Positions 6,531 through 47,696 of a stretch of DNA of 64,000 nt are shown one piece after another. The notes below the pieces were generated by a model, which had not been told where the DNA came from, did no database searches, and worked only from the letters and a program-made list of their open reading frames with translations. Source of the stretch: a virus; the IMG/VR virus record IMGVR_UViG_3300046660_000385, positions 53,859 through 117,858 of that record; one strand, given 5' to 3'. A program made the position numbers and the translations under genes. The first letter of the stretch is position 1, and each line of letters starts with the position of its first letter.

Positions 6531-6551
6531 TCCCCTTTCCCGGAGCGCCCC

Positions 6552-14489: not shown

Positions 14490-14501
14490 GGACCGGACGC
14501 T

Positions 14502-17500
14502 ATGGCAAACGACAACAAGGATCTGGGCGACTTCGCCGCGATCACCCCTGGCACGCAACCCGACCTGGGCGAGTTCGCCAAGATCACGCCCAACGGCGGC
14601 AAGCCGCGCAGCGCGATCGGCGAGATCGGCAACCAGCTCAAGGCCGGTATGCTGGTCGACCTGCCGAAGATGGCGGGCCAGGCGATCCAGTACACGTCCG
14701 ATCCTGGTCGTCCTGTCTATGAGTTCGGCAAGAGCATCGCCGACTACGCGCGCGAGCAGGAAGCGCGCCCCGACCTGCAGCCGCAGGAATACGACCACAA
14801 CATCGTCACAAACACGCTCGCCGCCGGCGCCCGCATGATCCCGCAGTCGATCATCCCGGCCGCCGGTGTCGGCCTGGTCGCGTCCGGCGTCGGCGCTGGC
14901 GCTGGCGGCGCGCTGCTGGCCGGTTCCGTGCTGGGCGCGGCCCCGGCCGGCATGGCGCAGGCCGAGGACACGCTGGAAAAGGCCCGCGCCAAGGGCGACA
15001 TTTCCGAGCACGATGCGCTGGTGGCCGCCCGCAAGACCGGCCTGATCGAGTGGGGCGGCGAGACCGTCGGCAACTACCTCGGCGGCAAGATGTTCGGCCT
15101 GGCCGGGCGCGCGATCGGCAAGACCACCGGCACCGCCGCCGAGCGTGCGCTGCAGGAAGCGACCAACACGCAGGTGCTCAAGCCGTGGATGCGCCAGCTG
15201 CCCGAGACCATCATCGGCGAAGTCGGCACGGAAATGGGCCAGAACGCGGGCGAAGCCTACGTCGAGCAGCAGGCCGGGATCGACAACCACGCGCCGTGGG
15301 ACGCCGCCAAGGAAGCGATTCTGCCGACCATCGGCATGACCGCGCTGCTGGCCCCGTTCGGCCTGGCCGGCATGGGCGTGAACGCGCACCGCCAGCAGCA
15401 ACGTAACGACGTCCTGACCTCGCCGGATGCCGACCAGAACTCGCGCACCCGCATCGCCGCCGAGATCGCGCCCGAAATCGAGAAGGTCGACCGCCAGGCC
15501 GCGGCGAATTTCCGCGTCAACGCAGCCCGCGCCATTTCGTCGAACCAGCCGCTGACGCTGGACTCGTCGCTGTTCGCCGACCCGGCGGCCGCCCCGCCCG
15601 CGCCAAGCGCCCCCGCCGCCCAGCCGGCCATCAACCCGGCCGACGCGCCGGACGCCGGCACCGACGTGGTGCCGCAGAACGCGATGACGGCCGCTGCCAG
15701 CCTGGTGCAGCCGATGCTGCCGATGCGCCAGGAGGGCGCCCAGAAGCAGGCCGAGGAACGCACCCGCACCACCGGCATCCCGCACGAGGTCGTGCCGCAC
15801 CCGAGCGCGGCCGGCATGTTCGGCGTGCGCGCGGTCCAGGACCCGGCGCTCGAACAGGGCGCAGCCCCGGCCGCCGAGGCGCCGCCGCTCGATCCTGCCG
15901 CGCCGGCGACCCCGGCCGCCCCGGTCGGCCTGCAGATCGGCGAGACCGTGCAGGCGACGATCAACGGCGAGGACGTGTTCCCGGAGGGCACCCGCATCAC
16001 CGGGTTCTCGCCGAACGGCAAGTTCGTGCTGGTCGAAGGTTCGACCGCCGGCATCCCGATCGAGAACATCACCCGCCTCGACCCGGCCGCCGCCGCCGCG
16101 ATCGAGCTTGGTGCGCACGAGGCCGCCACCAGCCCGCAGAACGACCGCCCGGAGCCGTCCGAGGCCCAGAAACACGCCGGCAACTACAAGAAAGGCCCGG
16201 CCGAGCTGCAGGGCCTGCCGCTGATGATCGAGAACCCGGTCGGCTCGACCCGCACCGGCACCGACCCGGACGGCACGCCGTGGTCGACCACCATGAGCGA
16301 CCACTACGGCTACATCCGTGGCACCAAGGGGTCCGACGGCAAGGAGCTGGACATCTACGTCGGCCCGAACCCGGCCAGCCACCATGTGTTCGTGGTCGAC
16401 CAGATGAACCAGGACACCGGCGAATACGACGAGCACAAGATCATGCTCGGCTACAACTCGCCCGAGCAGGCCCAGCGCGCCTACGAGGCGCACTACACGC
16501 AGGGCTGGCAGGGCGGCGAGAACGTCACCGCCACCACCGTCGACGGCCTCAAGGAGTGGCTCAAGGGCGACACCACCCAGCCGTTCAATCCGGCCTACTA
16601 CCCGGACATGCAGATCCCGGCCGGACCGGACCTGTTCAACACCGAGCAGGCCGCGCCGCCAGCCGTCACCACCGAGGCCCCGGCCGCGCCGCAGCAGCCG
16701 CAAGACAGGGAGCAGATCGCCCGCGACACGCTGCGCGAGCTGGGCCAGATCTCGAACGATCACTTCGGCGGCAACCACCCGAACGCGATCGACTTCGGCA
16801 CCGCCGACGGCACGTTCGCCGGCCTGGGCACCCTGAACATGGACGAGCAGGGCAACATCGTCCTGCGCCGCTTTGCCTACAACGAGGACCATGTCCTCAA
16901 GAACGGCAAGCCCGCCAGCCTGCAGGAAATGATGGATGCTTCGCTGTTTTCCGGCTCGACCCCGGACGCCGGCGCGGTGCCGACCTCGGGCCTGGCTTCG
17001 TTCCATGACGCCTACAGCAAGCGTGCGTACGACGCGATTTTCCGCATCCAGCCGCAGGAACTGGTCGAGCTGGCCAGGCAGGGCAAGGCGGTGCTCGGCA
17101 ACCTGAGCGAGGGCGAGGTCCTGCTGTCCGGCGACATCGCGGGCAAGTACCTGAGCGAACTGAACGGCAAGCCGGTCACGCCGGAAGAACTTCAGCGCCT
17201 GACCAAGCCGGCCGGGCGGATGCAGGGCGCGGCGCTGACCGAGGACGAGCTGAACGCCGCGTTCGACCAGGCCGAAAACGAGCTGGCGCAGGAGCAGAAG
17301 CCGCCCGCGCAGGAGCCGCAGGCCCAGGAACCGTCCGCACGCTGGGACAACGCTACGCCGGACGAGCGGATCGACATGCTGACCAAGGCCGGCCGAGGCG
17401 ACGTCGCCGAGGACTTCGCCCATGTGGGCTGGGACGACCTGTCGCCCCGCGCCCAGGAAGCGCTGTCCAGGCCCGCCCAGCAGCCGCAGAGCGCCTACGA

Positions 17501-20500
17501 GCGCTACAAGGAGATCATGACGCGCGGCGGCAGCGGCACGGCCAAGCTGGTCGACGAGATCCGCCGCAGCGACGAGCTGACCGACGCCCAGGTGCAGGAG
17601 CTGGTCGGGCTGCCGAAGATCGACAAGGCCGCCGAGGAGAAAAGCCGCGCCGACAGCGCCGCGTTCGGCCAGCGCGCCGCCGAGATCCTGTCGACCCTGA
17701 AAGGCCTGAAAACCCCGGACGCCATCGCCAGCGCCCAGCAGACCCTGTCCACGCTGGCCGACGACATGGACGCGGTGAACGACCGCTTCCGCAACCTGGT
17801 GCGCAAGGCCGCCGACGAGATCCCGGCGTGGATGCCGCACAACCTCGGCCAGGCCGGTGACGCCGAGCGCCAGGCCGCCAACCGCGTCAAGAACACGCTC
17901 GAAGGCGTGGCCAACTTCGGCAAGAACGTCACCGCGCCGGAACACGCCGGCAACGAATTCAAGGAATACGACCCGAACAACAGGTTCGAGCCGACCGCCT
18001 CGCCCGAGGACGCGATCGGCGAGGCCGAGATCGACGAGCGCGTGATCCCGCTCACGATGGACGCGAGCGACTTCAAGGAAGTCACCGACGAGTGGGCGTC
18101 GCTGTTCGCCGCCCCCGGCCAGAAGGTCATCACCGAGCAGCGCGCCAAGCAGGCCGGCGTCATGTCGCAGGAAGAAGCGGCCGCCCAGCTGGCCAAGTGG
18201 AAGGAACACGTCGCCAAGCAGGCCGAGGAGCACCGCGGCGAGAACTCCCAGCGCACGATCCTGTCGCTGTTCGACCTGTCGGGCGAGTGGTCCAAGCCGT
18301 GGCGCGAAGCCGGCTACAACGTCGTCACCTTCGACATCCAGACCGGCCAGGACGTGAACGACTTCTCGGTCGAATACTTCACCGACGAGTGGGACCTGAG
18401 CGACGTCTACGGCATCCTGGCCGCCGCGCCGTGCACGGATTTCACGCACGCCGCCTCGCGCCTGTGGGCCGTGAAGGACGCCGACGGCCGCACCGAGGCC
18501 TCGAAGGAGCTGGTGCTGCAGACCCTGCGCACCATCGAATATTTCCGTCCGAAGTTCTGGGCGCTGGAAAACCCGAGCGGCGGCCGGATCGAGAAAGTCA
18601 CCGGCCTGCCGTCGCCGCGCCTGTCGTTCCAGCCGCACCACTTCGGCAACCCGGAGACCAAGCCGACCGCGCTGTTCGGCAAGTTCAACCCGGAGCTGCC
18701 GCTGGCGAACGTCGCCCCGACCGGCAGCAAGACCGACAAGGTCGGCGGCAAGAGCATCGAGACCAAGAACGAGCGCTCGGAGACCCCGGAAGGGTTCGCC
18801 TATGCGTTCTTCATGGCCAACAACTACATCGACCAGACCCCCGAGCAGCGCCTGGTCGGCGACTTCCCCGAGCTGTCCGGCGCCGTCAAGGGCGCGCTCA
18901 AGGCCGGCATGGACGAAGAAGCGATCCGCGACGTCGTCACCCGCACCTACGAGGACGGCGACCCGGATGCGGCCCGCAACGAGCTGGTGCAGGCCGTGGC
19001 CGACCACGTCAAGGAGAACGGCGCCCCGGCCAAGCCGGCCGGGGTCGACTACCCGAACCGCCGCCTGGGTTTCCAGAAGGCGGCCACGGACGAGGCCGAC
19101 GCCTACAACGACCACGCCTGGGCCAACATCGCCGCGGCCAACATGAAGGTCGGCGACAAGTTCGAGCTGGGCGGCAAGCAGCAGAGCGTCGAGTCGATCA
19201 GCGACAAGACCCTGAAACTCAAGGATGCGGACGGCAAGACCCGCACCCTGAACCCGGACGGCGTGGCGTGGGACCAGTTCAAGCGCGACCTGGCCGGCCA
19301 GCTGGTGGTCGAGAACCTGCAGGCCAACAACATCATGAAGCCGGCGCGCCCGCTGATCGACATCCTGCGCCGCGATCCGGCCGCGCACGTCGACAGCAAG
19401 GGGTCCGTCTACCTGCGCGACGGCGGCCTGGTGCCGGCGGCAAAGCAGGAAGATGAGGAACAGGCGACCGCCTGGGCTGACGTCGAGACCGGCGACCGGA
19501 TGGACGTCGTCGCCTATCGCGCCCGTCCGTTCGGCGCGAAGGAGGATGGGCACCCGAAGGGCGGCGTGTTCTACGCCGAGACCGAGGACGGCACCGCCGG
19601 GTACGGCGGTACGGCTGCCGAAGTCGTCAAGGAAAAGCTGTCGCTCACGAACGTCCTGGTGGTGGACAACAAGCAGGCGGCATTGACGAAGCTGTTCGGC
19701 AAGAACAGCGACGAGCTGGGCAAGTATTTCGATGCCCGCGACGACGAGTCCAAGAACGCCGAGAGCGTGGCGGACGAGCTGATCGGCCCGGCGGCGAAGG
19801 CAGCCGGCTACGACGCCGTTCTCTACAAGCAGGACACCGACCTGTACGGCAACGCCACCCGCTCGCTGCAGGTGGTGCGCAATGTCGACAGCCAGGCCGA
19901 GCAGGCCAAGCCAGAGGCGCCCGCGCCGGCCGCGACCGAGGACGAAGCCAAGCCCGGCAAGATCCGCTCGTTCAGCGAGGACGAGAAGCGCGCGATCGCC
20001 GGGATCTCGCTCGGCACCGGCACCCTGGTCAACCGCGAACTCGAACTGGGGCTGGGCAACTTCATCCGTCCGAACACGATCAAGGCGCTGCGCGAGAAAC
20101 TGCTGGGAATGGACCCGGACAAGGTGCGGCCGTACATCGACGGCGCCGTGCGGCGCTACGAGCGCGAGCGTGCGGAAAAAGAGCCGGTCGTGCAGAACCA
20201 GCAGAAGATCCACGTCTACGACGAGAAGGAAGCCAAGCCGCTCCTGATTATCGCCTGCACCGAGGAAAAGCTGGCGGGCCGCCACGCCGTGATCGACCTG
20301 TACCAAGGGGCGATGTTCGACGTGCTGCGCAAGTGGCTGCCGAAGGGCGCGATCGACGTCTACGTCCTGTCGGCCAAGTACGGCCTGGTGCGCGCCGAAG
20401 CCGTCCTGCAGAGCTACGACGAGAAGATGACGGCCTCGCGCCAGAAGGAGCTGATCGCCGAGGGATTGGTCCCGAGCGACTTCAAGGGCAAGAATTTCAG

Positions 20501-29500: not shown

Positions 29501-32500
29501 CTCGTCGATCGCACGGCGCCTGGACCAGCTGGGCGCACTGACCAAGGGCCAGCGCGAGACCGGCGGCCAGGGCCTGTTCGCGGCCACCGACAACCTCGAA
29601 TCGCAGCACGCCGCGGACGCCGTGCAGGCGTTCTTCGTCGACATGTACAACGGCACGGCGAAACTCAACTTCGCCGAGACCACGGCCGCGCTGGGCCTGA
29701 ACGGCCTGATCGACGAGAGCACCGGCGCGCTGATCTACGGCAAGCTGCCGGAAGTGCCGAAGTTCCTGAACCGCCTGATGTCGCTGGAAACCCACCGCCA
29801 GGACGAGGTGTTCGAGGAGTTCTTCAACCGCCTGACGGAAGTGATCGAGCGCGCCAAGGCCAACGGCACCTTCGACGCCGGCATGGAGACCCTGCGCGCC
29901 GACAAGGTGACGAAGCTGCGCGACGAGGTCGTCTACGAGGACAAGCGCACTGGCGCCAACACCCGCTATGTCGAGCTGGAACTGACCCACCCGACGCACT
30001 TCAACTCGTTCGACCAGGCCCAGTCCGAGATCGTCCGCTGGGGCGACAAGTTCCTCGGCTTCTTCCGCAACGAGAGGACCGGCAAGGTGTTCGCGCTGAT
30101 GCGCACCGGCACCTCGACCGACGCCAAATCCGGCAACGTGGTCACGCGCGGCGCGCAGCTGCGCACGACCGGCGGCTACCGCTACGGCGACGAGGTCGAC
30201 AAGATCATCAAGGGCGCGCGCGGCGAAAAGACGGTCAAGAAAACCGTGGTGCCGATGCTGTACTCGCCGCCGACCAACGAGGTGCTGACCGAGACCTACA
30301 CCAACACGAACGACAAGCAAATGACGGTGTCCTCGCACCGCCTGGCCGACCTGCTGATCCAGCGCGGCCTGGAACGGGTCGAGCAGACCATCCTGGCCGG
30401 CCCGTCCGGTTCGGAGCGGGACGCGTTCATCCGCCTGCTGGACAAGATGCGCCCGCACCTGGTGGCGCAGAAGGAGACCGAGCGCCAGGTGCCGGCGTTC
30501 GTGCGCCTGACCGCTGACGCGGCGCGCTCCGAGTGGGATGCCGAGGTCGCCGCCACCCCGACGACCTACACCAGCAAGACGCACCTCTTGACCGGGATGC
30601 TGCTGCCGATCTGGGACCGCCTGCCGGGCGACCCGCGCGTGGTGCGCACCCAGACCGAGGACGGCGAGCGCCTGCTGGGCCGCGTGGTATCCGAGCGCAA
30701 CCTGGACCAGACCCTGAAAAACCTCGGGGTCGGCTCGAACCTGTCGAAGGTCGCACCGAGCACCGTGCTGCAGCGCCTGATGGATGGCCAGCGCGGCATC
30801 CTGGCCAACGGCTGGCTGCTGCAGAAGGTGCGCGTCTCGAACGACAGCCGGATCGAGATCAGCGGCCAGTCGCTGGCGTACAACCGCGCCGAGCGCGAGC
30901 TGCTGACCAACAACGGCGCGTTCGTCGAGCGCATCAACTGGCAGGAGCGCGTGTTCATCCCGACCGGGGAGCAGGGCGTCAAGCTGCTCGAGAAGCTGCT
31001 GGAATACAAGCCGCTGGTCGAGCTGGGCAAGCCGGCCGAGGCCCAGACCGAGGACGAGGACGCCGAGTTCTCGCGCGGACGAAGCGACACCGGCATGTCC
31101 AGGGGCGACGTGCAGAACGTGGTCGCGCCGATCGTGAAGGGCTGGCTGAACGGCCCGAAAGTAACTGTCGTCCAGAGCGTGGCCGACCTGCCGTTCAAGG
31201 CACCTAGCGACACCCGCGGCGCGACCTACCAGGGACAGGTCTGGATAGTGGCGGACAACCTCGGACACGCCGGCGAAGTGCAGTTCGTGCTGGCGCACGA
31301 GGCGCTGGGCCACATCGGCCTGCAGGCCCTGCTGGGCAAGGAAGCGCTGACCCGCGAGCTGAACCGCCTGCGCCTCATCAACCCGGAGCTGGCCAAGGCC
31401 GCGCGCGAGCAGGCCGCCACCTTCGGCTACGACCTGAACCTGGCCACCGAGGAAGCGCTGGCGGATCTGGCCGGCACCGGCAAGACCATCAACGGCTGGC
31501 AGAAGTTCGCCGCGCTGGTGCAGAAAGCCCTGCGTCAGCTGGGCCTGGACCGGGTCGCCGACTGGATGGAGGGCAAGACCCAGGCCGAGACCATGTCCTT
31601 GCTGGCCCGCGCCAGGGAGGCGGTCGAGGGTTCGCGCGCCGCGCGCACCTTCGGCAACATGGAGACCGCCCGGTTCTCGGACGGCATGAAGTCGCCCTGG
31701 TTCTCGCAGCTGGCGCGCCAGATCGAGCGCCTGCCGCAGAAGTCGGCCACCGCCCTGCAGTGGGGCGAGACCATGATGGGCAGCGGCTTCGCCCAGAAGG
31801 GCGTCAAGCAGGACGAGATCTACTGGACCGGCGTGATGGACTGGCTGCTGATGCAGGGCGAGAACACCAAGGTCACGAAGGCCGCGCTGCTGGACTACCT
31901 GGCCGAGAATGGCGTGCGCGTCACGGAAACGATGCACAGCGAGGAAGTGCCCGAGCCGACCCCGGAAGGCCTGGCCAAGCGCGAAGCGGTGCTCGCCAAG
32001 TACAACGAGCGCCTGGACGACCTGCAGGAGCGCATCCTGGACAGCGACGAGACGCCCGAGCGCCTGGCGCTGCAGGAGGAGTGGTCGAACCTGATCGACC
32101 AGCGCAACATCGAGGCCGACCTGGCCTACCGGCTGCCGTCCAACCGCTTCCAGCGTCCGCGCTACGCCAGCTACACGCTGCCGGGCGGCGAGAACAACCG
32201 CGAGCTGCTGCTGACCCTGCCCGCGCGCGAGCCGTCCTTCAAGCTGGACGACTACATCGGCGAGCTGAGCGACAAGTACGGCTGGGAGGTCCAGGGCAAC
32301 ATGCGCCGCCCGGGGTGGACCGAGGACGACCTGGCGCCGGACGAGCGCACCAGGCTGCACGCGCTGCAGGAAGAATCGCTGCAGGAGGACAACGAGCGCA
32401 CCCGCAATACCTTCCAGTCGAGCCACTGGGACCAGAAGAACGTGCTGGCGCACGTCCGCTTCAACGACCGCACCGACAGCGAGGGCAAGCGCGTACTCCA

Positions 32501-35500
32501 CGTCGAGGAACTGCAGAGCGACTGGGGGCAGATCGGCAAGCGTGACGGCTTCAAGGGCGACCCGGTCCCGCCGGCGGAACTGGACGCGGCCGCCAAGGCC
32601 GCGCGCCAGGTGCTGAACAGGAACGACAACCTCGGCTTCGACTACACGATCGAGGCGATGAGCGCGATCGAGCACCACAACGACTGGAAACACCGCTGGG
32701 AGCTGGACACGCCGTCGGACTATGCCGTGGTCGACCACTACCGGCAACTGTACATGTTGAACGCGCTGGCCAATGCCGGCGTGCCGCAGGCGCCGTTCGT
32801 CGGCAAGACCGAGGCCTGGCTGAACCTGGCTTTGAAGCGCGTGATGGTCTACGCCGCCGAGAAGGGCTACGACCGTGTCTCGTTCGTCACCGGCGACCAG
32901 GCCGTCAACCGCTTCAACCTGTCGCAGCAGGTCAAGGCGGTCGAGGTCGAGAAGGCGGTCGGCGAGCCGGGCTACCGCGTCAACATCACGCTGCTGGACG
33001 GCGAGCCGCACGAGACCTGGGCCAACGATGACCACGACCTGGTCAACCTGATGGGCAAGGAGCTGGCCAGCAAGGCGATCGACCAGATCAAGGCCGATCC
33101 GTTCAGCGCCGCCCGCTTCACCGGCGACAACCTGAACCTGGGCGGCCACGGCATGCGCACGTTCTACGACAAGATCGTGCCGAACGCGGTGAACAACCTG
33201 ATGAAGGGGCTGGGCGGCGGCCGCGTGTACGAGGGCGACGTCATCCACAAGGAGCCGTACGACCCGAAGCCGGGCACGACCAACTACGTCGACGAGGACG
33301 GCCGCCTGGCCTACGCCAACCACGGCGTCACCGGCGACCCGGACTTCGGCGCCAACAACTACTACCCGTACAAGGGGTGGAGCAGCCAGCCGGTGATCGA
33401 CATCACCGACACCATGCGCGAGAAGGTACAAGGCGGCCTGCCGCTGTTCTCGCGCAACGTCGAGGACACCGGCCCGCTGCCGGCGGCGAGGGACGAGGCC
33501 AGCGTGCGCCTGTCGCGCGCCACCCCGCAGCAGCTGGCGCGCCAGGTCGGCGACACGCTGAAAACCAACACGGTGACGAAGCTGGGCCGCACGCTGTCGC
33601 ACTACCGCTCGATCGGCCTGCAGTTCCTGGGCCGCCTGCAGCTGACCGAGATCTACGGCAAGCTGTTCCCGCAGGGCGACCGGCCAAACATGCTGCAGTT
33701 CTACAGCGAACTGGCCGCGTTCATGGACGCCGAAAAGACCGAGGGCGGCAGCAAGGCCGACGCCATCGTCGACCGCTGGGCCAAGCTCAAGCGCGCCGAC
33801 GAGCTGGCCAGCCTGATGCACGACAGCACCCGCCGCGAGATCGACCCGTCCGAGGCCTACGTCACCGGCGACAACTACACGCACTGGAAGGAACTGAACG
33901 CGCGCTACGAGGCCCTCAAGAAGGCCGAGCCGGAAGCGATCAAGATCTTCCACGAGGCGGCGCAGATGTACCAGACCCACTACGCCAACGTGCGCCAGGC
34001 CGTGAAGGACCGGATCGACCGCACCCTGACGGCGCACCCCAACCGCAAGAGCCTGATGCGCCGGATGGAGCAGGAGTTCTTCGGGCGCGGCATCAAGGGC
34101 GTGTACTTCCCGCTGGCGCGCTTCGGCGACTACGTCGTCACCGTGCGCTGGGTCGGCAAGGACCCGAAACCGGGGCAAAGCGTGGTGCGCGAGGCCGTCA
34201 TCTTCGCCGAGACCCTGAACCAGGCCGAGGACGAACGCCGGCGCCTGCTGGCCGAGTACCCGGCGTCCAAGGGCTACCAGGTGATGCCGGTGACGAAGCG
34301 CGCCGAGTTCAACGCGGCCAGGGATTCCGTCTCGCGCGGCTTCCTGAAAAAGCTGTACGCCGCACTGGACGACGCGGGCCTGCAGGACCCGTCGCTGCAG
34401 GACACGATCAACCAGCTGTATCTGACCAGCCTGCCGGACCTGTCCTGGGCCAAGAGCGGCATCCACCGCACCGGCATGCCGGGCTTCAGCCAGGATGCGC
34501 GCCGCGCGTTCGCCCACCACATGTTCCACGGCGTGTCCTACCTGGCCAAGCTGAACTACTCGGACCGGCTGGCCGAGGTGCTCGAGGGCATGCAGAAGTT
34601 CGCCAACGCCAACGCCGCCAACCCGGACTACGACCACGTCAAGGCGCAGCAGGTCATCGACGAGATGCACAAGCGCCACGACAACTACATGAACCCGAAG
34701 GGCAACCAGCTGTCGACGAAGCTGACCTCGTTCGGTTTTGTCTGGTTCCTGGGTGCGTCGCCGGCCTCGGCGCTGACCAACCTGCTGCAGACCCCGACGG
34801 TGGCGCTGCCGATCCTCGGCGGCCGCTTCGGCTACTCCAAGGCGACGTCGGCGCTGATCGAGGCGTCCGGGCTGGCGATGCGCGGCCACAACGACATGGG
34901 CAAGATCCTCAAGGGCGACGAGAAGCGCGCCTGGGAGGAGTGGCTGCGCATCGGCCTGGTCGACCTGACGATGGTGCACGATCTGGTCGGCGTGGCCTCG
35001 GGCCGCGACAACCAGCTGCACGGCAACATGCGCAAGGTGATGAAGGTGGCATCCTTCATGTTCCACCACGCCGAGCGCTTCAACCGCCAGGCGACGGCGC
35101 TGGCGGCCTACCGGCTGGCGCGCAAGGACGGCATGAACCACGACGACGCGTTCCGCGCCTCGGTCGAACTGACCAAGGCCTCGCATTTCGATTATGCCTC
35201 GTCAAATCGCCCGCGCTTCATGCAGGGGTCGGCGGCGCAGGTCGTGTTCCTGTTCAAGCAGTACAGCCAGAACCTGATCTACACCTTCGCGCGCAACGCG
35301 AAACTCGCGTTCCAGGGCGACCGGCAAGCGCAAAAGACGCTGGCCGGCCTGCTCGTCACCCACGCGATCGCGGCCGGCATCATCGGCCTGCCGGCGGTGT
35401 CGACGCTGCTGGCGGCCGCGTCGATGCTGGGCGGCAGCGACGACGATCCGTGGGACGCCGAGGTGGCGCTGCGGCGCCTGCTGGCCGACCTGTTCGGCGA

Positions 35501-36191
35501 GACGGCCGGCCAGGTGCTGGCGCACGGCATCACGCGCCCGACCCCGTTCGACATGTCCGGCCGGGTCGGCGCCGACCACCTGATCTTCCCGGACATCCAG
35601 GAAGGACTGCAGGGCGAGCGCTCGTTCGACGCGTTCCTGGCCGGCCTGCTCGGCCCGGTCGTCGGCATCGGCGCCAACTGGGCCAGGGCCTTGCAGCAGT
35701 GGGGCCGCGGCGACAGCGCGCGCGCGATCGAGACCGCGCTGCCGTCGGTGGCCAAGGGACCGTGGCGCTCGATCCGCTACGCCGAGGAGGACGGCGCCAA
35801 GGACCGCAACGGCATCGTGGTGGCCGATGACATCACCGGCACCGAGCACGCGGCCTCGTGGCTGGGGTTCTCGAACGGCCGCGTGCGCGAGGCGCAGGAA
35901 GCCAAGGCCGCGATCTACGGGCGCGACCAGGCCCTGCAGCGCCGCCGCCAGCAGCTGATGGACGAGTACGCCCGCAAGCGCATCAAGCACGAGGACGTGG
36001 GCGACCAGATGGCCGCGATCCGGGAGTTCAACCGCGCGCACCCGAACCGGATCATCGGCGGGCTGCATCTGGCCCAGTCGGTGCGCAACCGCATGAAGCA
36101 CAACCAGCAGGCCAAACAGGGCCTGTACCTGCCGGCCAAGCGCGCGAAGGATGCGCGCTCGGCCGGCGATTTCGCAGACGGGGAGGACTAA
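14502..36191 (+). CDS. giant DarB-like polyvalent virion protein (7229 aa)
   Basis: Uninterrupted 21.7-kb ORF with strong GC3 bias; multiple recognisable enzyme domains; lies between ejection protein and lysis genes. Confidence 0.9.
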   Translation: MANDNKDLGDFAAITPGTQPDLGEFAKITPNGGKPRSAIGEIGNQLKAGMLVDLPKMAGQAIQYTSDPGRPVYEFGKSIADYAREQEARPDLQPQEYDHNIVTNTLAAGARMIPQSIIPAAGVGLVASGVGAGAGGALLAGSVLGAAPAGMAQAEDTLEKARAKGDISEHDALVAARKTGLIEWGGETVGNYLGGKMFGLAGRAIGKTTGTAAERALQEATNTQVLKPWMRQLPETIIGEVGTEMGQNAGEAYVEQQAGIDNHAPWDAAKEAILPTIGMTALLAPFGLAGMGVNAHRQQQRNDVLTSPDADQNSRTRIAAEIAPEIEKVDRQAAANFRVNAARAISSNQPLTLDSSLFADPAAAPPAPSAPAAQPAINPADAPDAGTDVVPQNAMTAAASLVQPMLPMRQEGAQKQAEERTRTTGIPHEVVPHPSAAGMFGVRAVQDPALEQGAAPAAEAPPLDPAAPATPAAPVGLQIGETVQATINGEDVFPEGTRITGFSPNGKFVLVEGSTAGIPIENITRLDPAAAAAIELGAHEAATSPQNDRPEPSEAQKHAGNYKKGPAELQGLPLMIENPVGSTRTGTDPDGTPWSTTMSDHYGYIRGTKGSDGKELDIYVGPNPASHHVFVVDQMNQDTGEYDEHKIMLGYNSPEQAQRAYEAHYTQGWQGGENVTATTVDGLKEWLKGDTTQPFNPAYYPDMQIPAGPDLFNTEQAAPPAVTTEAPAAPQQPQDREQIARDTLRELGQISNDHFGGNHPNAIDFGTADGTFAGLGTLNMDEQGNIVLRRFAYNEDHVLKNGKPASLQEMMDASLFSGSTPDAGAVPTSGLASFHDAYSKRAYDAIFRIQPQELVELARQGKAVLGNLSEGEVLLSGDIAGKYLSELNGKPVTPEELQRLTKPAGRMQGAALTEDELNAAFDQAENELAQEQKPPAQEPQAQEPSARWDNATPDERIDMLTKAGRGDVAEDFAHVGWDDLSPRAQEALSRPAQQPQSAYERYKEIMTRGGSGTAKLVDEIRRSDELTDAQVQELVGLPKIDKAAEEKSRADSAAFGQRAAEILSTLKGLKTPDAIASAQQTLSTLADDMDAVNDRFRNLVRKAADEIPAWMPHNLGQAGDAERQAANRVKNTLEGVANFGKNVTAPEHAGNEFKEYDPNNRFEPTASPEDAIGEAEIDERVIPLTMDASDFKEVTDEWASLFAAPGQKVITEQRAKQAGVMSQEEAAAQLAKWKEHVAKQAEEHRGENSQRTILSLFDLSGEWSKPWREAGYNVVTFDIQTGQDVNDFSVEYFTDEWDLSDVYGILAAAPCTDFTHAASRLWAVKDADGRTEASKELVLQTLRTIEYFRPKFWALENPSGGRIEKVTGLPSPRLSFQPHHFGNPETKPTALFGKFNPELPLANVAPTGSKTDKVGGKSIETKNERSETPEGFAYAFFMANNYIDQTPEQRLVGDFPELSGAVKGALKAGMDEEAIRDVVTRTYEDGDPDAARNELVQAVADHVKENGAPAKPAGVDYPNRRLGFQKAATDEADAYNDHAWANIAAANMKVGDKFELGGKQQSVESISDKTLKLKDADGKTRTLNPDGVAWDQFKRDLAGQLVVENLQANNIMKPARPLIDILRRDPAAHVDSKGSVYLRDGGLVPAAKQEDEEQATAWADVETGDRMDVVAYRARPFGAKEDGHPKGGVFYAETEDGTAGYGGTAAEVVKEKLSLTNVLVVDNKQAALTKLFGKNSDELGKYFDARDDESKNAESVADELIGPAAKAAGYDAVLYKQDTDLYGNATRSLQVVRNVDSQAEQAKPEAPAPAATEDEAKPGKIRSFSEDEKRAIAGISLGTGTLVNRELELGLGNFIRPNTIKALREKLLGMDPDKVRPYIDGAVRRYERERAEKEPVVQNQQKIHVYDEKEAKPLLIIACTEEKLAGRHAVIDLYQGAMFDVLRKWLPKGAIDVYVLSAKYGLVRAEAVLQSYDEKMTASRQKELIAEGLVPSDFKGKNFSEVYIAGGQLYAPVAQVYAEQLRAAGFVGPEAEVKGTVGFIGQQRGQLGEYLRTVHERLGTLPERPAPLEVGVRVRIKRLTKAPVAGVSLKDANRFAGRMGTVEREMIVGENRYFIVNLDDTPEKVERQQEFHSGFLDVLTPAEQAAPGELADDVEKRKAQIREQVEATLGADKQLVAQADLVGTGNRFVDFKDSYKAAFERTLAQMAKDGKIEARDVQMFTDSLDKLPGYLDRAARQFINDHHGPDNQELSSLKHKWGYTDENVPKDGRFPDYETALKFDNKRTGKEQFSFEIQVAQGPNGRWAVSSGYQQGGQTGNATGIGMIPPALTSEAHRTRMLAVEAGGEAIRQHLAANGKESLRTTGNILTAITKLKLLGELRDKAAALAARAEAAGAEKLAGQIREVGRDMQPNDVNLTRKRVDETIAGREKLVRAAEKRAEKKAAEKAAKAEPKADPKPEPVAPEAPQPKQDAPGTRRFPKSVRTAIATRLQQVLDGFSADRNTREGRARSIMRSAIEELGKEKTVIDVADQLRDASSDLFKQFKVQADVLDEIADQLDAAENQQEQEVPAAVAEPASPAKFDIGTPPTLDYRLQTRGGTLYLIPPVGKGFTKETRDALRDWLRSAGYFSNATGDHMVSASQITGGPSTDLIPDGVEEQKYGRLVAKEKAKDDGALAGSRPMSPKQFETDLKDHGKLRFGEATYEVKPAGRGGFGRIQADTYIVEVSYPHSNKQIGFQQNLSLQQAVEAARVDAFDWWDNRRVKEAEFAKKREKLVRAGQRELFGLFSKDPDLMRIAADAGLPVEVDAAARRAIVDWVAAEKAVADLDPDRKLMLDNIVIGGRVTFPSEWFDSLRKYLKRAVKRAEKELDRDPAVYQAELIRSAQLVGLPPESVGVFKLGFDHALAGKTKSTLPPSTMMAQGYDAGAAWMKSDEGQAWFTGRRGKKLENTGADLRRWFDESKRKIKEVTADNLTASYEIIKGQASRVEAFANVAGPGATPGTKRYITAVRDSLRPFQEWLLENGPLQTLYGETGYRESESFRITRFLDGRAYPMTYDATGKRVSMEDATAQERLELLQEAAATYNARLQGLAEAMSGATTVEEAARAYQGYLVKNKDEYVYSSTRLTEAGKEIDRLVRGRVHDLEPDTREVENLIKTQNEPDGPSNRKQALMVPKLDHVVREGEKLQDYRKGENVTPQQMKDTFGFADVGFGKWVGAKQDQDHLNYAYDAFMDLAKLLGIDPKHIGLGGSLHFTIGALGHGRHAAHFQARQPHPHGGTVPVINVTNTKGDGTVAHEWFHALDHALSEQWHGSSWVQHEAVQRVVRLLSTSRDIEFLVKKLPLAVSGQSFMRYGRRNTPIHNLKTEAGLIENAEAVLRYDAGRQGGRPTDYKKNADAMGEDYWGNPKELLARAAEAWVHDTLGGTSNYLVNPAWVGEGKVKAPQYKGAPYPMGEERKLFNDALGALVKALRFNDKGVTLDKETFDKEFPDLDRQFKEAYESLKAQIPSMVRAHLAEKEARKVAQKYAKDEAERAKQAEALAAQKAKEQAERDAAEARLREELEKQQQQPVEPPSGPLSEGDLEALFDQAESELAEEQQEQPEAKDPGEATQADHWTQEDYQHLLKLIDDGQVFLLADPSRGLSIIHDMPGQYTEHKGFGLFHTKTPEYDVTWDGGGEMRQTPGGKSYTLVSIKEGREAFLKAINWDQAKTKLQAKLIVKTGPKAAPTLSAEQEKSAKQLIGEAAKLGVTGIEESLKGLIQLFGGNALKSFPAGFDEESYKAAKPHFEKALAAFQAAGKTLVDLFKMLIQHFGPGIRPYAIQFAKEQGLSANLAPPVSATEKIAKWVEQRLQAKETFGSAPLFKVADEAFGGTQAEGKYSVKDAYDAMEAGMNRHIMAQGITPDGAATDAVHKIEELDGWTQRLATQTRRTEEMDEYQQFSTPPSEAFAAAWLANIRPGEVVLEPSAGTGSLAIYAKLAGADVVVNELSSRRAEVLKTVLPEARLFQENAEQLHNILPADVKPSVILMNPPFSATAGRMQGARDTNNGATHIEQALKRLQEGGRLVAIVGSGMAADRPAFKSWWTKIRQDYNVRVNITVDGSNYAKYGTTFDNQILVIDKTGPTTAAVVTGEVKTLAELPALLEGIRNERKAAEGTDGAHPSGQPDADQQGGDRVPAGQEAAGDRAGGADADPVGTGQRDQSDSGGAGLPGHRQDGSAGGRDGEQVGAEAGGEVSDQPGKPGPAGRGANGRGTGGLGNTRGRSGTADRESVPRDGGQQPVTGEVTVEASDQAAATGELSDAIFENYTPQRLSIPGAKPHPGKLVQSAAMSAVLPPSPSYAPNLPKAVIEKGLLSLAQLEAVVYAGQAHQQMLPGGEVRRGFFIGDGTGVGKGREIAGILLDNQRQGRKKAVWLSAKQGLLRDAKRDFAGVSGNPDHILAHNKVKAGEKIDADSGILFTTYDTLRMGSDIKNNAPGLAGPGTMSAEQLKATYPKGTPIEWRGRSGTLESWDTRGHKAKISLPNGVQTTVRFDELKVNGQSGWGGIDHVKNDKKLDSKSRLNQIVEWLGKDFDGVIAFDEAHKMGNVLERKGKRGKTKPSATALAGVALQEALPKARIVYVSATGATEVHNLAYATRLGLWGEGSAFAKVTDFVGGIESGGVAAMELVSRDMKAQGSYLARSLSFDGVTYDRLEHQLTPLQNDIYNELARAWQGVLQNVNAALEATLQNKDPKAKSNALSAFWGNHQRFFSHIITAMQMPTIIEAAQRDLDNGHAVVMQLVNTNQAEQDRQAAKMANDDEAIPEDFDFTPRDTLLNYVRHSFPVQQHEEYTDEEGNKHTRPVVDSKGNPVFNQEMVAKRDALVKNLEQIRVPDNPLDMIVRAFGVSNVAEITGRSRRFIQEQDPKTGGFKVVEQKRPASAVPADADAFMDDKKRVLVFSDAGGTGYSFQSDLGAKNQRRRMHYLVQPGWRANNAVQGFGRTHRSNEANQPHYVLPTTNLKAQKRFISSIARRLDQLGALTKGQRETGGQGLFAATDNLESQHAADAVQAFFVDMYNGTAKLNFAETTAALGLNGLIDESTGALIYGKLPEVPKFLNRLMSLETHRQDEVFEEFFNRLTEVIERAKANGTFDAGMETLRADKVTKLRDEVVYEDKRTGANTRYVELELTHPTHFNSFDQAQSEIVRWGDKFLGFFRNERTGKVFALMRTGTSTDAKSGNVVTRGAQLRTTGGYRYGDEVDKIIKGARGEKTVKKTVVPMLYSPPTNEVLTETYTNTNDKQMTVSSHRLADLLIQRGLERVEQTILAGPSGSERDAFIRLLDKMRPHLVAQKETERQVPAFVRLTADAARSEWDAEVAATPTTYTSKTHLLTGMLLPIWDRLPGDPRVVRTQTEDGERLLGRVVSERNLDQTLKNLGVGSNLSKVAPSTVLQRLMDGQRGILANGWLLQKVRVSNDSRIEISGQSLAYNRAERELLTNNGAFVERINWQERVFIPTGEQGVKLLEKLLEYKPLVELGKPAEAQTEDEDAEFSRGRSDTGMSRGDVQNVVAPIVKGWLNGPKVTVVQSVADLPFKAPSDTRGATYQGQVWIVADNLGHAGEVQFVLAHEALGHIGLQALLGKEALTRELNRLRLINPELAKAAREQAATFGYDLNLATEEALADLAGTGKTINGWQKFAALVQKALRQLGLDRVADWMEGKTQAETMSLLARAREAVEGSRAARTFGNMETARFSDGMKSPWFSQLARQIERLPQKSATALQWGETMMGSGFAQKGVKQDEIYWTGVMDWLLMQGENTKVTKAALLDYLAENGVRVTETMHSEEVPEPTPEGLAKREAVLAKYNERLDDLQERILDSDETPERLALQEEWSNLIDQRNIEADLAYRLPSNRFQRPRYASYTLPGGENNRELLLTLPAREPSFKLDDYIGELSDKYGWEVQGNMRRPGWTEDDLAPDERTRLHALQEESLQEDNERTRNTFQSSHWDQKNVLAHVRFNDRTDSEGKRVLHVEELQSDWGQIGKRDGFKGDPVPPAELDAAAKAARQVLNRNDNLGFDYTIEAMSAIEHHNDWKHRWELDTPSDYAVVDHYRQLYMLNALANAGVPQAPFVGKTEAWLNLALKRVMVYAAEKGYDRVSFVTGDQAVNRFNLSQQVKAVEVEKAVGEPGYRVNITLLDGEPHETWANDDHDLVNLMGKELASKAIDQIKADPFSAARFTGDNLNLGGHGMRTFYDKIVPNAVNNLMKGLGGGRVYEGDVIHKEPYDPKPGTTNYVDEDGRLAYANHGVTGDPDFGANNYYPYKGWSSQPVIDITDTMREKVQGGLPLFSRNVEDTGPLPAARDEASVRLSRATPQQLARQVGDTLKTNTVTKLGRTLSHYRSIGLQFLGRLQLTEIYGKLFPQGDRPNMLQFYSELAAFMDAEKTEGGSKADAIVDRWAKLKRADELASLMHDSTRREIDPSEAYVTGDNYTHWKELNARYEALKKAEPEAIKIFHEAAQMYQTHYANVRQAVKDRIDRTLTAHPNRKSLMRRMEQEFFGRGIKGVYFPLARFGDYVVTVRWVGKDPKPGQSVVREAVIFAETLNQAEDERRRLLAEYPASKGYQVMPVTKRAEFNAARDSVSRGFLKKLYAALDDAGLQDPSLQDTINQLYLTSLPDLSWAKSGIHRTGMPGFSQDARRAFAHHMFHGVSYLAKLNYSDRLAEVLEGMQKFANANAANPDYDHVKAQQVIDEMHKRHDNYMNPKGNQLSTKLTSFGFVWFLGASPASALTNLLQTPTVALPILGGRFGYSKATSALIEASGLAMRGHNDMGKILKGDEKRAWEEWLRIGLVDLTMVHDLVGVASGRDNQLHGNMRKVMKVASFMFHHAERFNRQATALAAYRLARKDGMNHDDAFRASVELTKASHFDYASSNRPRFMQGSAAQVVFLFKQYSQNLIYTFARNAKLAFQGDRQAQKTLAGLLVTHAIAAGIIGLPAVSTLLAAASMLGGSDDDPWDAEVALRRLLADLFGETAGQVLAHGITRPTPFDMSGRVGADHLIFPDIQEGLQGERSFDAFLAGLLGPVVGIGANWARALQQWGRGDSARAIETALPSVAKGPWRSIRYAEEDGAKDRNGIVVADDITGTEHAASWLGFSNGRVREAQEAKAAIYGRDQALQRRRQQLMDEYARKRIKHEDVGDQMAAIREFNRAHPNRIIGGLHLAQSVRNRMKHNQQAKQGLYLPAKRAKDARSAGDFADGED
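16110..16585 (+). other. domain of giant protein: inorganic pyrophosphatase-like (polyvalent type)
   Basis: AGNYKKG...IENP.GS.R.G...HYGYIRGT.G.DG..LDIYVG...DEHK.MLG. Confidence 0.75.
18250..18830 (+). other. domain of giant protein: C5-cytosine DNA methyltransferase-like
   Basis: ILSLFDLSG (motif I-like), APCTDF (catalytic PC), WALENP (motif VI). Confidence 0.7.
19500..19880 (+). other. domain of giant protein: degenerate ADP-ribosyltransferase-like fold
   Basis: VAYRA...GGVFYA...AGYG...L.L.NVL...AGYDAVLY follows the polyvalent ART pattern loosely. Confidence 0.4.
20240..20660 (+). other. domain of giant protein: DUF6884/YaaA-like
   Basis: IIAC...K...DLYQG..F...VLSAKYGL......YD..M...GG..Y...IGQQ. 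Confidence 0.65.
24050..24910 (+). other. domain of giant protein: LPD1-type region with HEWFH zinc-binding motif
   Basis: FGF..V.FGKWV, AYDAFMDLA, AHEWFHALD, YW....ELLARA.EAWV, PYP.GEER. Confidence 0.65.
26280..26880 (+). other. domain of giant protein: N6-adenine DNA methyltransferase
   Basis: QQFSTP, VLEPSAGTG (motif I), MNPPFS (motif IV). Confidence 0.85.
26932..27330 (+). CDS. nested gene in the +1 frame of the giant ORF (132 aa, unknown function)
   Basis: SD-like GGAAGG just upstream, ATG 26932, TAA 27328-30; GC3 bias switches from the host frame to this frame over exactly this interval. Confidence 0.75.
   Translation: MNEKLLKVRMARTLLVNQMPINRAAIEFLPGKKPLATEPAVLTLIRWGLDNGINPIPVAPGYPDIDRMEAQVDAMANRWEPRRAVRFLTNPESQDPLDVVLTAEELAASATPEDAAELLIENLYHAMVANSP
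27380..29900 (+). other. domain of giant protein: Strawberry-notch-type SF2 helicase (N- and C-terminal lobes)
   Basis: LSLAQLEAV, GFFIGDGTGVGKGR, FDEAH, YVSATGA, SDAGGTG, QGFGRTHRSN. Confidence 0.9.
31090..31620 (+). other. domain of giant protein: zincin-like metallopeptidase (MPTase type)
   Basis: VLAHEALGHIGL followed by EEALADLA. Confidence 0.7.
33600..36191 (+). other. C-terminal PLxRFG-containing region of giant protein
   Basis: VYFPLARFGDY motif near 34100, then helical/hydrophobic C-terminus. Confidence 0.75.
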
Positions 36192-45128: not shown

Positions 45129-45182
45129 GGTCCGTCCTGTTGTTGGATCGTGAGCCGGGCCTGGACGTGGCCCGGCGATGGC

Positions 45183-46460: not shown

Positions 46461-46461
46461 G

Positions 46462-47188: not shown

Positions 47189-47190
47189 GT

Positions 47191-47688: not shown

Positions 47689-47696
47689 GTCTGTCC

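Follow-up and report, generated by a model that had tools for sequence, protein, structure and literature searches.

A 7229-residue polyvalent protein of an uncultured phage-plasmid-like virus: a constant terminal frame with a changeable enzyme load

The window analysed here is a 64,000 nt stretch of the IMG/VR record IMGVR_UViG_3300046660_000385 (positions 53,859 to 117,858). It carries an open reading frame of 7229 aa whose product consists of a constant N- and C-terminal frame and, between the two ends, a changeable load of enzymes. The frame is formed by the N-terminal 545–700 residues (Gly/Ala hydrophobic segments and an InPase domain) and the C-terminal 900 residues (LPD39 and PLxRFG). 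The load of ~5,600 residues contains C5 and N6 DNA methylases, a strawberry-notch helicase, two zincins, DUF6884, a possible GNAT-like module and a possible ART-like cassette (Table 1). The protein belongs to a known class, the PLxRFG or 'DarB-like' polyvalent virion proteins of short-tailed phages, and as a member of this class, with its constant frame and changeable load, it is probably an internal-virion (ejection) protein.

Table 1. Features of the polyvalent protein gene and its upstream neighbour (nt positions in the window; aa positions in the respective protein)
Feature	Position (nt)	Strand	Remarks
SLT gene	11163..14489	+	1108 aa; SLT transglycosylase domain aa 756-843; 0 Cys
Whole gene, polyvalent protein	14502..36191	+	ORF, 7229 aa
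N-terminal constant end, aa 1-545	14502..16136	+	moderately hydrophobic Gly/Ala segments aa 108-147, 268-286
InPase PF18823 (type I inorganic pyrophosphatase of polyvalent proteins), aa 554-688	16161..16565	+	E 1.9e-54
Stretch A, aa 701-1235	16602..18206	+	helical; only in near-identical G001; bears linker copy 1 (aa 917)
Linker motif copy 1, from aa 917	17250..17321	+	...EDELNAAFDQAENELAQEQ...
C5 cytosine DNA methyltransferase-like, aa 1243-1448	18228..18845	+	phrog_757 E 1.3e-42
ART-like cassette (putative), aa 1655-1808	19464..19925	+	ESM-Atlas features
DUF6884 / phrog_5935, aa 1911-2055	20232..20666	+	DUF6884 aa 1915-1983, E 9e-13
Stretch B1, aa 2066-2440	20697..21821	+	no match in 50,697 phage records
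Predicted four-helix bundle, aa 2477-2570	21930..22211	+	10-residue pLDDT blocks 76-93; generic fold
Small domain, aa 2570-2683	22209..22550	+	also stand-alone proteins, 114-158 aa, 42-57% identity
Helical 'pre-zincin' region, aa 2739-3189	22716..24068	+	pLDDT mostly >85; always joined to following zincin
Zincin 1, aa 3185-3468	24054..24905	+	HEWFHALD motif, CLCA_X-like; LPD1 = C-terminal part of same fold
Linker motif copy 2, from aa 3579	25236..25307	+	...EGDLEALFDQAESELAEEQQEQP...
N6-adenine DNA methyltransferase, aa 3920-4121	26259..26864	+	LEPSAGTG + NPPF (aa 4025); phrog_6263 E 3.5e-12
Gly/Asp/Arg-rich low-complexity linker, aa 4136-4290	26907..27371	+	dN/dS ~1.4 (NG86), unconstrained
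Strawberry-notch-type SF2 helicase	27489..29888	+	AAA_34 E 6e-114, Helicase_C_4 E 3.3e-83
Zincin 2, aa 5530-5611	31089..31334	+	HEALGH (aa 5599), HExxxH variant; predicted three strands then motif helix
EELQSDW module, aa 5804-6316	31911..33449	+	EELQSDW at aa 6002
LPD39, aa 6356-6537	33567..34112	+	E 1.9e-25
PLxRFG 'tail-700' domain NF032893, constant C-terminal end, aa 6533-7214	34098..36143	+	698.6 bits

The gene starts with an ATG that lies 12 nt past the stop of the SLT gene and has AAGGA 9 nt to its 5′ side. It runs without stops for 21.7 kb, makes up 22.0% of the ~98.6 kb genome unit and encodes a protein of 791.7 kDa (~792). GC3 is 0.93, similar to neighbouring genes. The genome is that of an uncultured phage-plasmid-like virus; it encodes ParA/ParB/TrfA, and the lineage is known solely from soil and rhizosphere metagenomes. 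A tRNA scan of the window found none. The gene is the final one of a + strand virion block that comprises, upstream, portal, SU10-type adaptor, Hc3, structural and SLT genes. The SLT-domain protein is itself a probable internal virion or ejection protein.

The open reading frame is real and is not an assembly fusion. The thought that a metagenome assembler joined separate genes or strain variants into one frame draws on three features of the contig: its final 19.2 kb is a second copy of the first 20 kb (75–88% identical), its identity to the relative G001 is mosaic (66–100% depending on the block), and the ART-like cassette is found in this contig alone. Such an artefact is nevertheless highly improbable. 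Unbroken homologous frames are present in three other IMG/VR records (7148 aa in G001, and at least 5431 aa in G003 and 5864 aa in G002, where the frames end at the contig end), and more remote relatives show frames of 6165, 6423 and 7075 aa. A Logan contig from a different study (X2, 17,710 nt) is colinear with positions 14400–30199, and a 604-nt Logan contig from run X1, possibly the sample of origin, spans both junctions of the ART-like cassette with 0 mismatches. GC3 is uniform. Thus the single 7229-aa frame described at the outset holds, and the fusion of separate genes named there as its refutation was not found. Within the gene there are only three short rows of tandem repeats, self-BLAST of the protein shows no internal domain repeats, and megablast of the whole gene against phages gives no match.

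The ends of the protein (aa 1–700 and aa 6300–7229) are conserved among relatives and the middle is exchanged. The N-terminal 545 residues share 37–99% identity with G001, G002, G005, G006 and G027, and ~60% with P0011, a 7235 aa protein that has just the two ends in common with the giant. The Pfam contents of five relatives differ. Hydrophobic segments are displayed at both ends in G005, G006, G012 and G027, while G008 is without a strong C-terminal one. Exchange of load blocks is sometimes seen between genomes that are 97–100% identical in the flanking blocks. G001, G002, G003, G005, G027 and the giant form a natural series with the same ends and exchanged load blocks, and this gives a ready map of module boundaries for single-domain tests. 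The size is near the top of the range but is not a record, as proteins of 7235 and 7271 aa with the same ends exist. The PLxRFG module is tied to phages: in PLSDB it occurs in 12 plasmid records, none conjugative and all 12 non-mobilizable. Of the plasmid records matched by the methylase-helicase load, 5 of 7 are conjugative.

Profile and motif searches recover ten of the eleven parts that had been named from the letters, and in the order given; the exception is the ART-like part. The earlier count of about ten enzymatic modules is too high. The firm enzymes number six: InPase, C5-MTase, zincin 1, N6-MTase, helicase, and zincin 2, which is identified by its motif together with its predicted topology. 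A further four (ART-like, DUF6884, EELQSDW/GNAT-like and LPD39) are no more than candidates.

The InPase domain also matches the C-terminal end of 9b41_L, a portal chain of known structure (E = 7.4e-28); phmmer with both protein halves against PDB sequences yields this match, one at E = 0.1 and nothing else. The C5-MTase-like domain shows PCTDF at aa 1310 and ENP at aa 1356, and scores 19.6 bits against Pfam PF00145, under the 22-bit cut-off. The N6-MTase scores 22.0 bits against Pfam MTS, under the cut-off of 23. The helicase displays GDGTGVGKG at aa 4380 and DEAH at aa 4573. LPD39 directly precedes PLxRFG, an order kept in 5/5 relatives scanned. The PLxRFG domain covers profile positions 1–679 of 681 with a score far over the cut-off of 100, has PLARFG at aa 6537, and contains one strong TM-like segment (aa 6955–6973, nt 35364–35420) plus three weaker hydrophobic segments. 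Both ends of the protein are matched by phrog_10089, annotated 'DarB-like antirestriction'.

The ART-like cassette remains putative. In ESM-Atlas features, 28 of the 30 nearest named clusters are ART-PolyVal (score 0.91), and this language-model lead is the only one, as three sequence-profile tests failed: PF18760 (ART-PolyVal) gives no match to the genome at E ≤ 10, an HMM built from the confirmed ART-PolyVal domains of three relatives finds nothing at aa 1655–1808, and hhalign of the region with ART-PolyVal gives a probability of 0.19%. A search for homologous proteins of 132–422 aa with this region found none. The cassette is unique to this genome, and an unrelated segment is present at its place in G001 (~225 aa), G002 and contig X2 (676 nt).

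The long unassigned stretches, which the preliminary description took as candidates for new anti-defence domains, are only partly new domains; several belong to the zincin module or the methylase-helicase part, or are linkers. Positions 701–1235 and 2066–2440 have no match in 50,697 phage records and remain without relatives outside this lineage; within the latter, positions 2256–2349 recur twice in P0011. A tblastn search with aa 2060–3183 against the same records gives no match. The small domain at aa 2570–2683 yields a poor structure model here. The module consisting of the pre-zincin region, zincin and LPD1 matches 30 of 51 representative proteins. No fold was assigned to the pre-zincin region; its structural match list is filled by the four-helix bundle and so gives no evidence of a new fold. 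Positions 3725–3834 form the N-terminal portion, helical and conserved, of the methylase-helicase unit, and positions 3507–3620 and 4136–4290 are linkers.

By NG86, which is unreliable at 93% GC3, the unassigned stretches show dN/dS of 0.34–0.93, thus parts of them may be weakly constrained spacers. These values, the ~1.4 of one linker and the scores under the family cut-offs for PF00145, MTS and CLCA_X could all be expected if the giant were mainly a structural ejectosome or channel protein, its 'enzymes' largely decayed passengers or spacers and the counter-defence toolkit overstated. Further, the same C-terminal module is found in frames as short as 953 aa (G013, a complete record), so that the load is dispensable for the frame. 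A mainly structural protein is quite unlikely, however. The catalytic motifs are intact (PC and ENV, NPPF, Walker A, DEAH, HExxH and HExxxH), and the firm enzyme domains, among them helicase, zincin 1, InPase and N6-MTase, show dN/dS of 0.04–0.48 by the same method, with its limit at this GC3. In G003 an intein interrupts the P-loop of the helicase, the kind of position that marks essential active sites.

The protein is almost free of cysteine, with 2 Cys in 7229 residues against 75 expected from the genome's other predicted proteins (237 Cys in 22,760 residues; P about 6e-30). The two that remain are C1311, in the PC motif of the C5-MTase, and C1919, a conserved position of DUF6884; their retention at these sites also argues against decayed enzymes. 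In G003, 7/7 Cys are inside the intein region. Cysteine is likewise lacking from the comparison proteins with known ejection or with an annotation as injection or virion protein: T7 gp15 (0/747), T7 gp16 (0/1318), N4 vRNAP (0/3500), N4 gp51 (0/644) and P1 Sit (0/1140). P1 DarB is not (9/2255), and cytoplasmic enzymes of N4 and P1 contain 1.1–1.2% Cys. The depletion would also be in keeping with mere residence in the virion. As an indicator of ejection, it is cheap to test and applicable well beyond this phage.

This depletion bears on whether the giant could be a cytoplasmic late protein that is never ejected, works in the producing cell and lies beside virion genes only through operon economy. 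Example activities of such a protein would be C5/N6 methylation of progeny DNA prior to packaging and pyrophosphate clearance. The methylases and helicase could work on replicating phage DNA, the genome encodes further DNA enzymes and, separately, a ParB-like protein, and the case for packaging of the giant is indirect. But a purely cytoplasmic role is unlikely, since the near-total loss of Cys is common to T7 gp15/gp16 and N4 vRNAP and not to cytoplasmic phage enzymes, family members are published virion proteins (PMC9144972; PMC4819975), the hydrophobic ends are conserved, and this type of InPase occurs fused to portals.

For the favoured internal-virion protein, the packaging, ejection, cleavage and anti-defence action that we infer would proceed as follows. 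The giant would be made late alongside the virion proteins and packed into the head. It would pass unfolded down the short tail, either together with the DNA or before it, like T7 gp15/gp16 and N4 vRNAP, and its hydrophobic ends may help form or cross an envelope channel. During the first minutes in the cytoplasm, the enzymes would methylate or remodel the DNA as it enters and put host restriction or other defences out of action. The zincins may divide the chain into separate units by cleavage at the conserved linker motifs. The size counts against this route, as no protein larger than N4 vRNAP has been shown to go through the tail of a podovirus and the 792-kDa giant is twice the size of N4 vRNAP. 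Among the 'first-strike' packages delivered by phages, giant polyvalent virion proteins are probably the largest single ones, and almost none have been studied at the bench.

Zincin 1 has a CLCA_X-like part at aa 3185–3309 (E = 2e-28; 99.5 bits, under the 260-bit subfamily cut-off) with HEWFH at position 3293, followed by LPD1 at aa 3395–3468. The HExxH is on a helix after a small beta sheet, and the fold is similar to the catalytic domains of anthrax lethal factor and Pro-Pro endopeptidase, as expected of a zincin metallopeptidase. Structural relatives of the zincin module in BFVD include a fusion with head-morphogenesis (MuF) protein. A linker motif, PLSxxDLxALFDQAxAEL..QEQP, is present in two copies in the giant, and it is found 60–100 aa past LPD1 in 24 of 30 representative giants that bear the zincin module. 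It may be a cleavage or docking site. Processing by internal peptidases, suggested in the preliminary description, agrees with a published proposal for the zincins of polyvalent proteins (PMC5512222), to which a candidate cleavage motif is added here; the cleavage itself we infer. As a possible processing site the motif is cheap to test and is relevant beyond this phage.

Zincin 2 and the EELQSDW module form a unit of ~750 residues. The predicted model of the EELQSDW module tentatively suggests a GNAT-like acyltransferase fold with large inserts. Among its fold matches are AcrVA5 and the TacT/AtaT toxins, acyltransferases that modify a host target. Pfam PF00583 and PF18818 give no match to the genome at E ≤ 10, an ESM Atlas search with aa 5720–6360 gives a best score of 0.83 to unnamed viral clusters and is uninformative, profiles of aa 2760–3520 and aa 5530–6345 against PDB sequences give nothing meaningful, and Foldseek of both predicted models against PDB gives no match at E ≤ 0.001. 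Foldseek matches to the T7 ejectosome tunnel and to the pre-ejectosome of cyanophage A4 (E = 0.7–1.1) are not significant and were left unused.

A bolder and doubtful reading combines these elements. The giant would be a polyprotein that cleaves itself and is adapted to travel through the tail unfolded, with the linker motif as the zincin cut site, the removal of cysteine, except at positions where the chemistry seems to require it, as a signature of the route, and the HExxxH + EELQSDW unit as a new family of GNAT-like acyltransferases that modify a target in the host. Cutting of the motif by the zincin would then separate the ejected chain into independent effector blocks, and loss of Cys could predict ejected proteins in any phage genome.

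The giant qualifies as a polyvalent protein as understood by Iyer et al. 2017, since one chain holds several unrelated effector domains (InPase, C5-MTase, N6-MTase, Sno helicase, two zincin motifs, LPD1 and LPD39) and the gene lies in a late/virion context with the virion genes upstream on the same strand. In PMC5512222 (Iyer, Burroughs, Anand, de Souza, Aravind 2017), polyvalent proteins have 2 to 15 domains and are 'often >2,000 aa'; InPase, LPD1, LPD39, MTases and SF2 helicase are shared with those described there, and the two zincins represent both of its motif variants, HExxH with Asp three residues on, and HExxxH. The main text of that paper contains neither 'transmembrane' nor 'PLxRFG'; to the features above, the present analysis adds the frame-and-load layout and the Cys purge.

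By tblastn, the C-terminus has matches in 73 of 50,697 phage records, including H66, F116, PBC5, douglas 12A4, PEp14, LASTA and Parlo; no Burkholderia phage is among the ten genera named in the matches listed. The closest known systems are the PLxRFG giants of podophages with genomes of 44–66 kb, namely Pseudomonas H66 (gp60) and F116, Erwinia PEp14, Klebsiella LASTA and SopranoGao, Serratia Parlo, Sinorhizobium PBC5, Ochrobactrum POI1126 and Vibrio douglas 12A4. They share the LPD39+PLxRFG C-terminus (24–36% identity, E = 1e-15 to 1e-103 in most of the matches listed), a gene that ends the virion block and a load of methylase and helicase; POI1126, PBC5, Atu_ph08 and douglas also have InPase near the N-terminus. 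The giant differs in being nearly twice as long (Parlo, 3,764 aa) and in belonging to a ~98.6-kb genome with ParA/ParB/TrfA.

The C-terminal module is thus that of proteins treated in the literature as internal virion (ejection) proteins, as the preliminary description had supposed for the giant. Hardies 2016 (PMC4819975) lists H66 gp60, F116 p60, PBC5 p23, douglas 00062 and BcepMigl gp69 as homologues of T7 IVP-D (gp16), bearing domains that act inside the cell like N4 gp50, and gives H66 gp60 as a structural protein. Bcep22-like (Lessievirus) giants, JC1 gp69 and BcepMigl gp69, are compared here by gene position, size and published class; BcepMigl gp69 is listed beside the F116 group (PMC4819975). 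JC1 gp69 (4515 aa) was detected with 51 peptides in CsCl-purified virions (PMC9144972); like the giant, it is the product of the last virion-module gene and takes up 22.1% of its genome, against 22.0% here.

T7 gp16 (internal virion protein D) and N4 gp50 (virion RNA polymerase) are head-packed, Cys-free and ejected via a short tail. N4 gp50 is an IVP-D homologue with an embedded cytoplasm-destined domain (PMC4819975). The giant is 2 to 5.5 times longer, and SLT activity is inside T7 gp16 but in the upstream gene here. With hhalign, the LPD39+PLxRFG profile against single sequences gives probabilities of 0.2% for the N4 gp50 C-terminus and 0.1% for T7 gp16; the link in PMC4819975 required joined family HMMs (E = 8e-19). 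The IVP-D link is therefore taken from that paper together with BLAST matches to the proteins listed in it.

P1 DarB, the earlier precedent for the giant, is an analogue and not a homologue. It is a head-packaged, functionally proven antirestriction protein with the same N6-methylase and SF2-helicase architecture, but BLASTP shows 29% identity over 111 aa (SAM + NPPF motifs; E = 6e-4) and nothing in the helicase, which is not alignable to the strawberry-notch type. DarB is also without PLxRFG and InPase. As the class, the likely delivery and the likely role are already in print, this is not a new kind of system. Added here are the frame-and-load layout, the Cys purge, the linker motif past the zincin and the tentative GNAT-like fold of the EELQSDW module.

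The giant polyvalent protein is encoded by a single ATG-started, stop-free frame of 7229 codons (window 14502–36191, + strand) with a GC3 of 0.93, equal to that of the neighbouring genes. The ATG follows the upstream gene's stop codon by 12 nt and an AAGGA sequence by 9 nt, and the predicted product is 791.7 kDa with a pI of 5.7. The preliminary description had raised an assembly fusion of separate genes as the alternative, but the same frame is found unbroken in three other IMG/VR records, which bears out the reading as one gene. In relative G001 the open frame is 7148 aa, or 7144 aa when counted from its first Met, and long aligned blocks are 93–97% identical to the giant; in G003 and G002 the frames reach at least 5431 and at least 5864 aa, where the contig ends cut them. 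Records that are less closely related but fall in the same genome size class show frames of 6165 (G005), 6423 (G006) and 7075 aa (G027). Logan contigs assembled from the runs of other studies bear this out as well. Run X2 gives one contig of 17,710 nt colinear with 14400–30199 and one of 6,042 nt over 30178–34399, run X5 gives one of 36,162 nt over 20311–34399, and run X1, possibly the source sample, gives one of 604 nt that covers 19412–20015 with 0 mismatches.

Ten of the eleven parts named in the preliminary description are present and in the order claimed; the ART-like part failed the profile tests. The C5- and N6-methylase calls are based on PHROG profiles and intact motifs, with Pfam scores slightly under cut-off. 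The HEWFH motif is found at aa 3293, approximately 100 residues upstream of LPD1 (aa 3395–3468), and the region matches NCBIfam CLCA_X with an E-value = 2e-28, below the subfamily cut-off. In the structure model, the HEWFH region and LPD1 form a single zincin fold. The second peptidase motif, earlier written HExxGH, is an HExxxH variant, and HEWFHALD is the variant with an Asp three residues on; both variants are described for the zincins of polyvalent proteins by Iyer et al. (PMC5512222). For the ART-like part (aa ~1655–1808), 28 of the 30 nearest named clusters in a language-model look-up are ART-PolyVal (score 0.91). However, the ART-PolyVal Pfam model shows no match anywhere in the genome at E ≤ 10, an HMM made from the relatives' confirmed ART-PolyVal domains shows no match at this part, and hhalign gives a probability of 0.19%. 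With a language-model lead on one side and three negative sequence-profile tests on the other, this is the weak item among the named domains. No relative of the cassette was found; at this position a helical segment unrelated to it is present in G001, G002 and the X2 contig.

Several stretches that had been left unassigned, and offered as candidates for new domains, now resolve into modules or linkers. A HMMER search of 1.84 billion representatives with aa 2060–3183 yields only 51 proteins at E ≤ 1e-3. Thirty of these (1,062–6,035 residues) have one module in common, corresponding to approximately aa 2770–3520. The AlphaFold2 model of aa 2440–3520, from a 33-row alignment, is good (mean pLDDT 79.8), and its predicted domains are listed in the table. 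The segment at aa 2570–2683 has its counterpart in stand-alone proteins of 114–158 aa, aa 3725–3834 makes up the conserved helical part at the head of the methylase-helicase unit, and aa 3507–3620 and 4136–4290 are linkers. The latter (window 26907–27371) consists of 155 low-complexity residues rich in Gly, Asp, Arg and Gln, situated between the N6-methylase and the helicase, and shows a dN/dS of approximately 1.4 versus G002 and G005. Two stretches, aa 701–1235 and aa 2066–2440, have no relatives found beyond the lineage.

A linker motif, L..[ALIVM]FD.A...[LIVMA], typically PLSxxDLxALFDQAxAEL..QEQP, is present at aa 917 and aa 3579 of the giant; the chance level is a mean of 0.0175 per shuffled sequence copy. 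Of the 51 representatives, 24 contain the motif; each of these belongs to the 30 with the zincin module and has the motif 60–100 residues past LPD1. The motif may be a zincin cut site or a docking helix.

A block-by-block map of eight relatives shows that aa 1–700 and 6300–7229 are conserved and the middle is variable. The giant thus has the appearance of a frame, formed by the two ends, and a load of exchangeable enzyme domains. P0011, a related protein of 7235 aa, has only aa 34–700 and 5517–7228 in common with the giant. The relatives differ in Pfam content: FtsK-gamma is found in G005, a SNF2 helicase and a true ART-PolyVal in G006 and G012, a DdrB-ParB in G012 as well, two copies of ART-PolyVal together with a GHKL ATPase in G027, and LPD37 in G008. 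The hydrophobic segments at both ends are also found in G005, G006, G012 and G027. The unit of HExxxH and EELQSDW (aa 5530–6345) is kept in G006 and G027 with 31–46% identity in BLAST pieces, and is found in P0011, the related protein P0019 and a Dolichospermum jumbo phage; its model is poor (mean pLDDT 48.2). Identity to G001 is mosaic, with 66% in the DUF6884 block and 97–100% in adjacent blocks, therefore recombination swaps blocks within the gene. In G003 the strawberry-notch helicase is split by an intein (PF14890, E-value = 2.5e-15; L011:6751–7959), with the insertion point exactly in the P-loop (GDG/C...); the giant gene of the window is without this intein.

Of 729 candidates scored in a search for larger relatives, 70 giants share the C-terminus at E ≤ 1e-10; the two greatest lengths are 7271 and 7235 aa. 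Among 72,556 PLSDB plasmid records, 12 contain the LPD39 and PLxRFG module. None of the 12 is mobilizable; nine are 55–87 kb, one is 425 kb, and two are Neisseria records of chromosome size. By contrast, conjugative plasmids make up five of the seven records matched by the methylase-helicase DNA.

The giant contains 2 Cys in 7229 residues, where 75 are expected (Poisson tail 6e-30) from the 237 Cys in 22,760 residues of the remaining predicted proteins of this genome. The two are C1311 in the PC motif of the C5-methylase and C1919, conserved in DUF6884. G002 and G005 retain only the DUF6884 Cys, G006 only the PC-motif Cys, and G008 has none, while in G003 (5431 aa) all seven lie inside the intein region. 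Representative giants of more than 3000 aa (n = 25) have a mean of 0.021% Cys, and the three proteins upstream of the giant (783, 745 and 1108 aa) have none. Cys is also absent from T7 gp15 and gp16, N4 vRNAP and gp51, and P1 Sit; N4 primase, N4 exonuclease and P1 Cre have 1.1–1.2%, and P1 DarB 0.4%. Such scarcity would suit a protein whose route takes it out of the cytoplasm in an unfolded state.

The IMG/VR record is 117,858 bp in full, of which the window covers bases 53859–117858, and its last 19.2 kb is a second copy, 75–88% identical, of its first 20 kb, therefore the true genome unit is approximately 98.6 kb. The record resembles a circular or permuted genome of this size whose assembly ran beyond the end and continued into a related strain, and the CheckV rating of "100% complete, 117,858 bp" is an overestimate of unit size. 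The G006 record, which has direct terminal repeats and is rated as complete, is 98,275 bp long. The giant gene is far from the duplicated part and makes up 22% of the ~98.6-kb unit.

Features of the giant protein model and of the surrounding genome
Feature	Position	Strand	Remarks
Four-helix bundle	aa 2477–2570		AlphaFold2 model
Small beta domain	aa 2682–2739		AlphaFold2 model
Long, confidently folded helical region	aa 2739–3189		AlphaFold2 model
Zincin	aa 3192–3468		AlphaFold2 model
MazG-like dATP/dGTP pyrophosphohydrolase	contig 48615–48890 (L014:14615–14890)	+	91 aa; phrog_801, E-value = 5e-45
Tandem paralogues	window 6552–8903, 8914–11151	+	783 and 745 aa; both phrog_10969 (unknown function); 0 Cys
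TrfA-like replication initiator	window 44097–45128	-	
Terminal duplication	window 44783–64000 = contig 98641–117858		versus contig 1–20002; 75–88% identity
H-NS-like protein	window 45183–45659	-	
ParB	window 49426–50331	-	
ParA	window 50321–51115	-	
SSB	window 54555–54992	-	
Cro/YdaS-like HTH fused to DUF4406 (nucleoside 2-deoxyribosyltransferase-like)	window 58033–58605	+	
Ref-like RecA-dependent nuclease	window 58602–59006	+	after the HTH-DUF4406 gene

With its TrfA-like, H-NS-like, ParB, ParA and SSB genes the virus looks like a phage-plasmid. The phrog_10969 paralogues, with the structural genes on one side and the SLT protein on the other, may be additional ejection or tail proteins. The MazG-like gene is upstream of the window, between a 1081-aa portal gene and a 341-aa open reading frame that is without a PHROG match and is taken as the capsid gene from position alone. 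The HTH-DUF4406/Ref-like locus has a diverged second copy at contig 14006–14578. The N-terminal 340 aa of the giant share a 51% identity with P0123, a 1095-aa hypothetical protein assigned by NCBI to Aquabacterium sp. This hints at a host in the Burkholderiales, in line with a GC content of 68% and with sequencing runs from soil and rhizosphere.

The polyvalent class was defined by Iyer et al. 2017 (PMC5512222), who proposed zincin-driven processing. Hardies et al. 2016 (PMC4819975) put the F116-group giants (H66 gp60, F116 p60, PBC5 p23, douglas 12A4 00062 and BcepMigl gp69) in the T7 IVP-D (gp16) family, describe them as hosting domains that need cytoplasmic action, like N4 gp50, and give H66 gp60 as a structural protein. 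By tblastn the C-terminus of the giant matches H66, F116, PBC5 and douglas 12A4; hhalign against single T7 gp16 and N4 gp50 sequences gives no match. JC1 gp69, of 4515 aa and 22.1% of its genome, is detected in purified virions (PMC9144972). Literature searches on this kind of protein yielded no functional study of any PLxRFG giant. The protein described here would be packaged, ejected, cleaved and active against host defences. It is real and belongs to a known class, in which it stands out as very large and rich in load; P1 DarB is an architectural analogue of it and nothing more.
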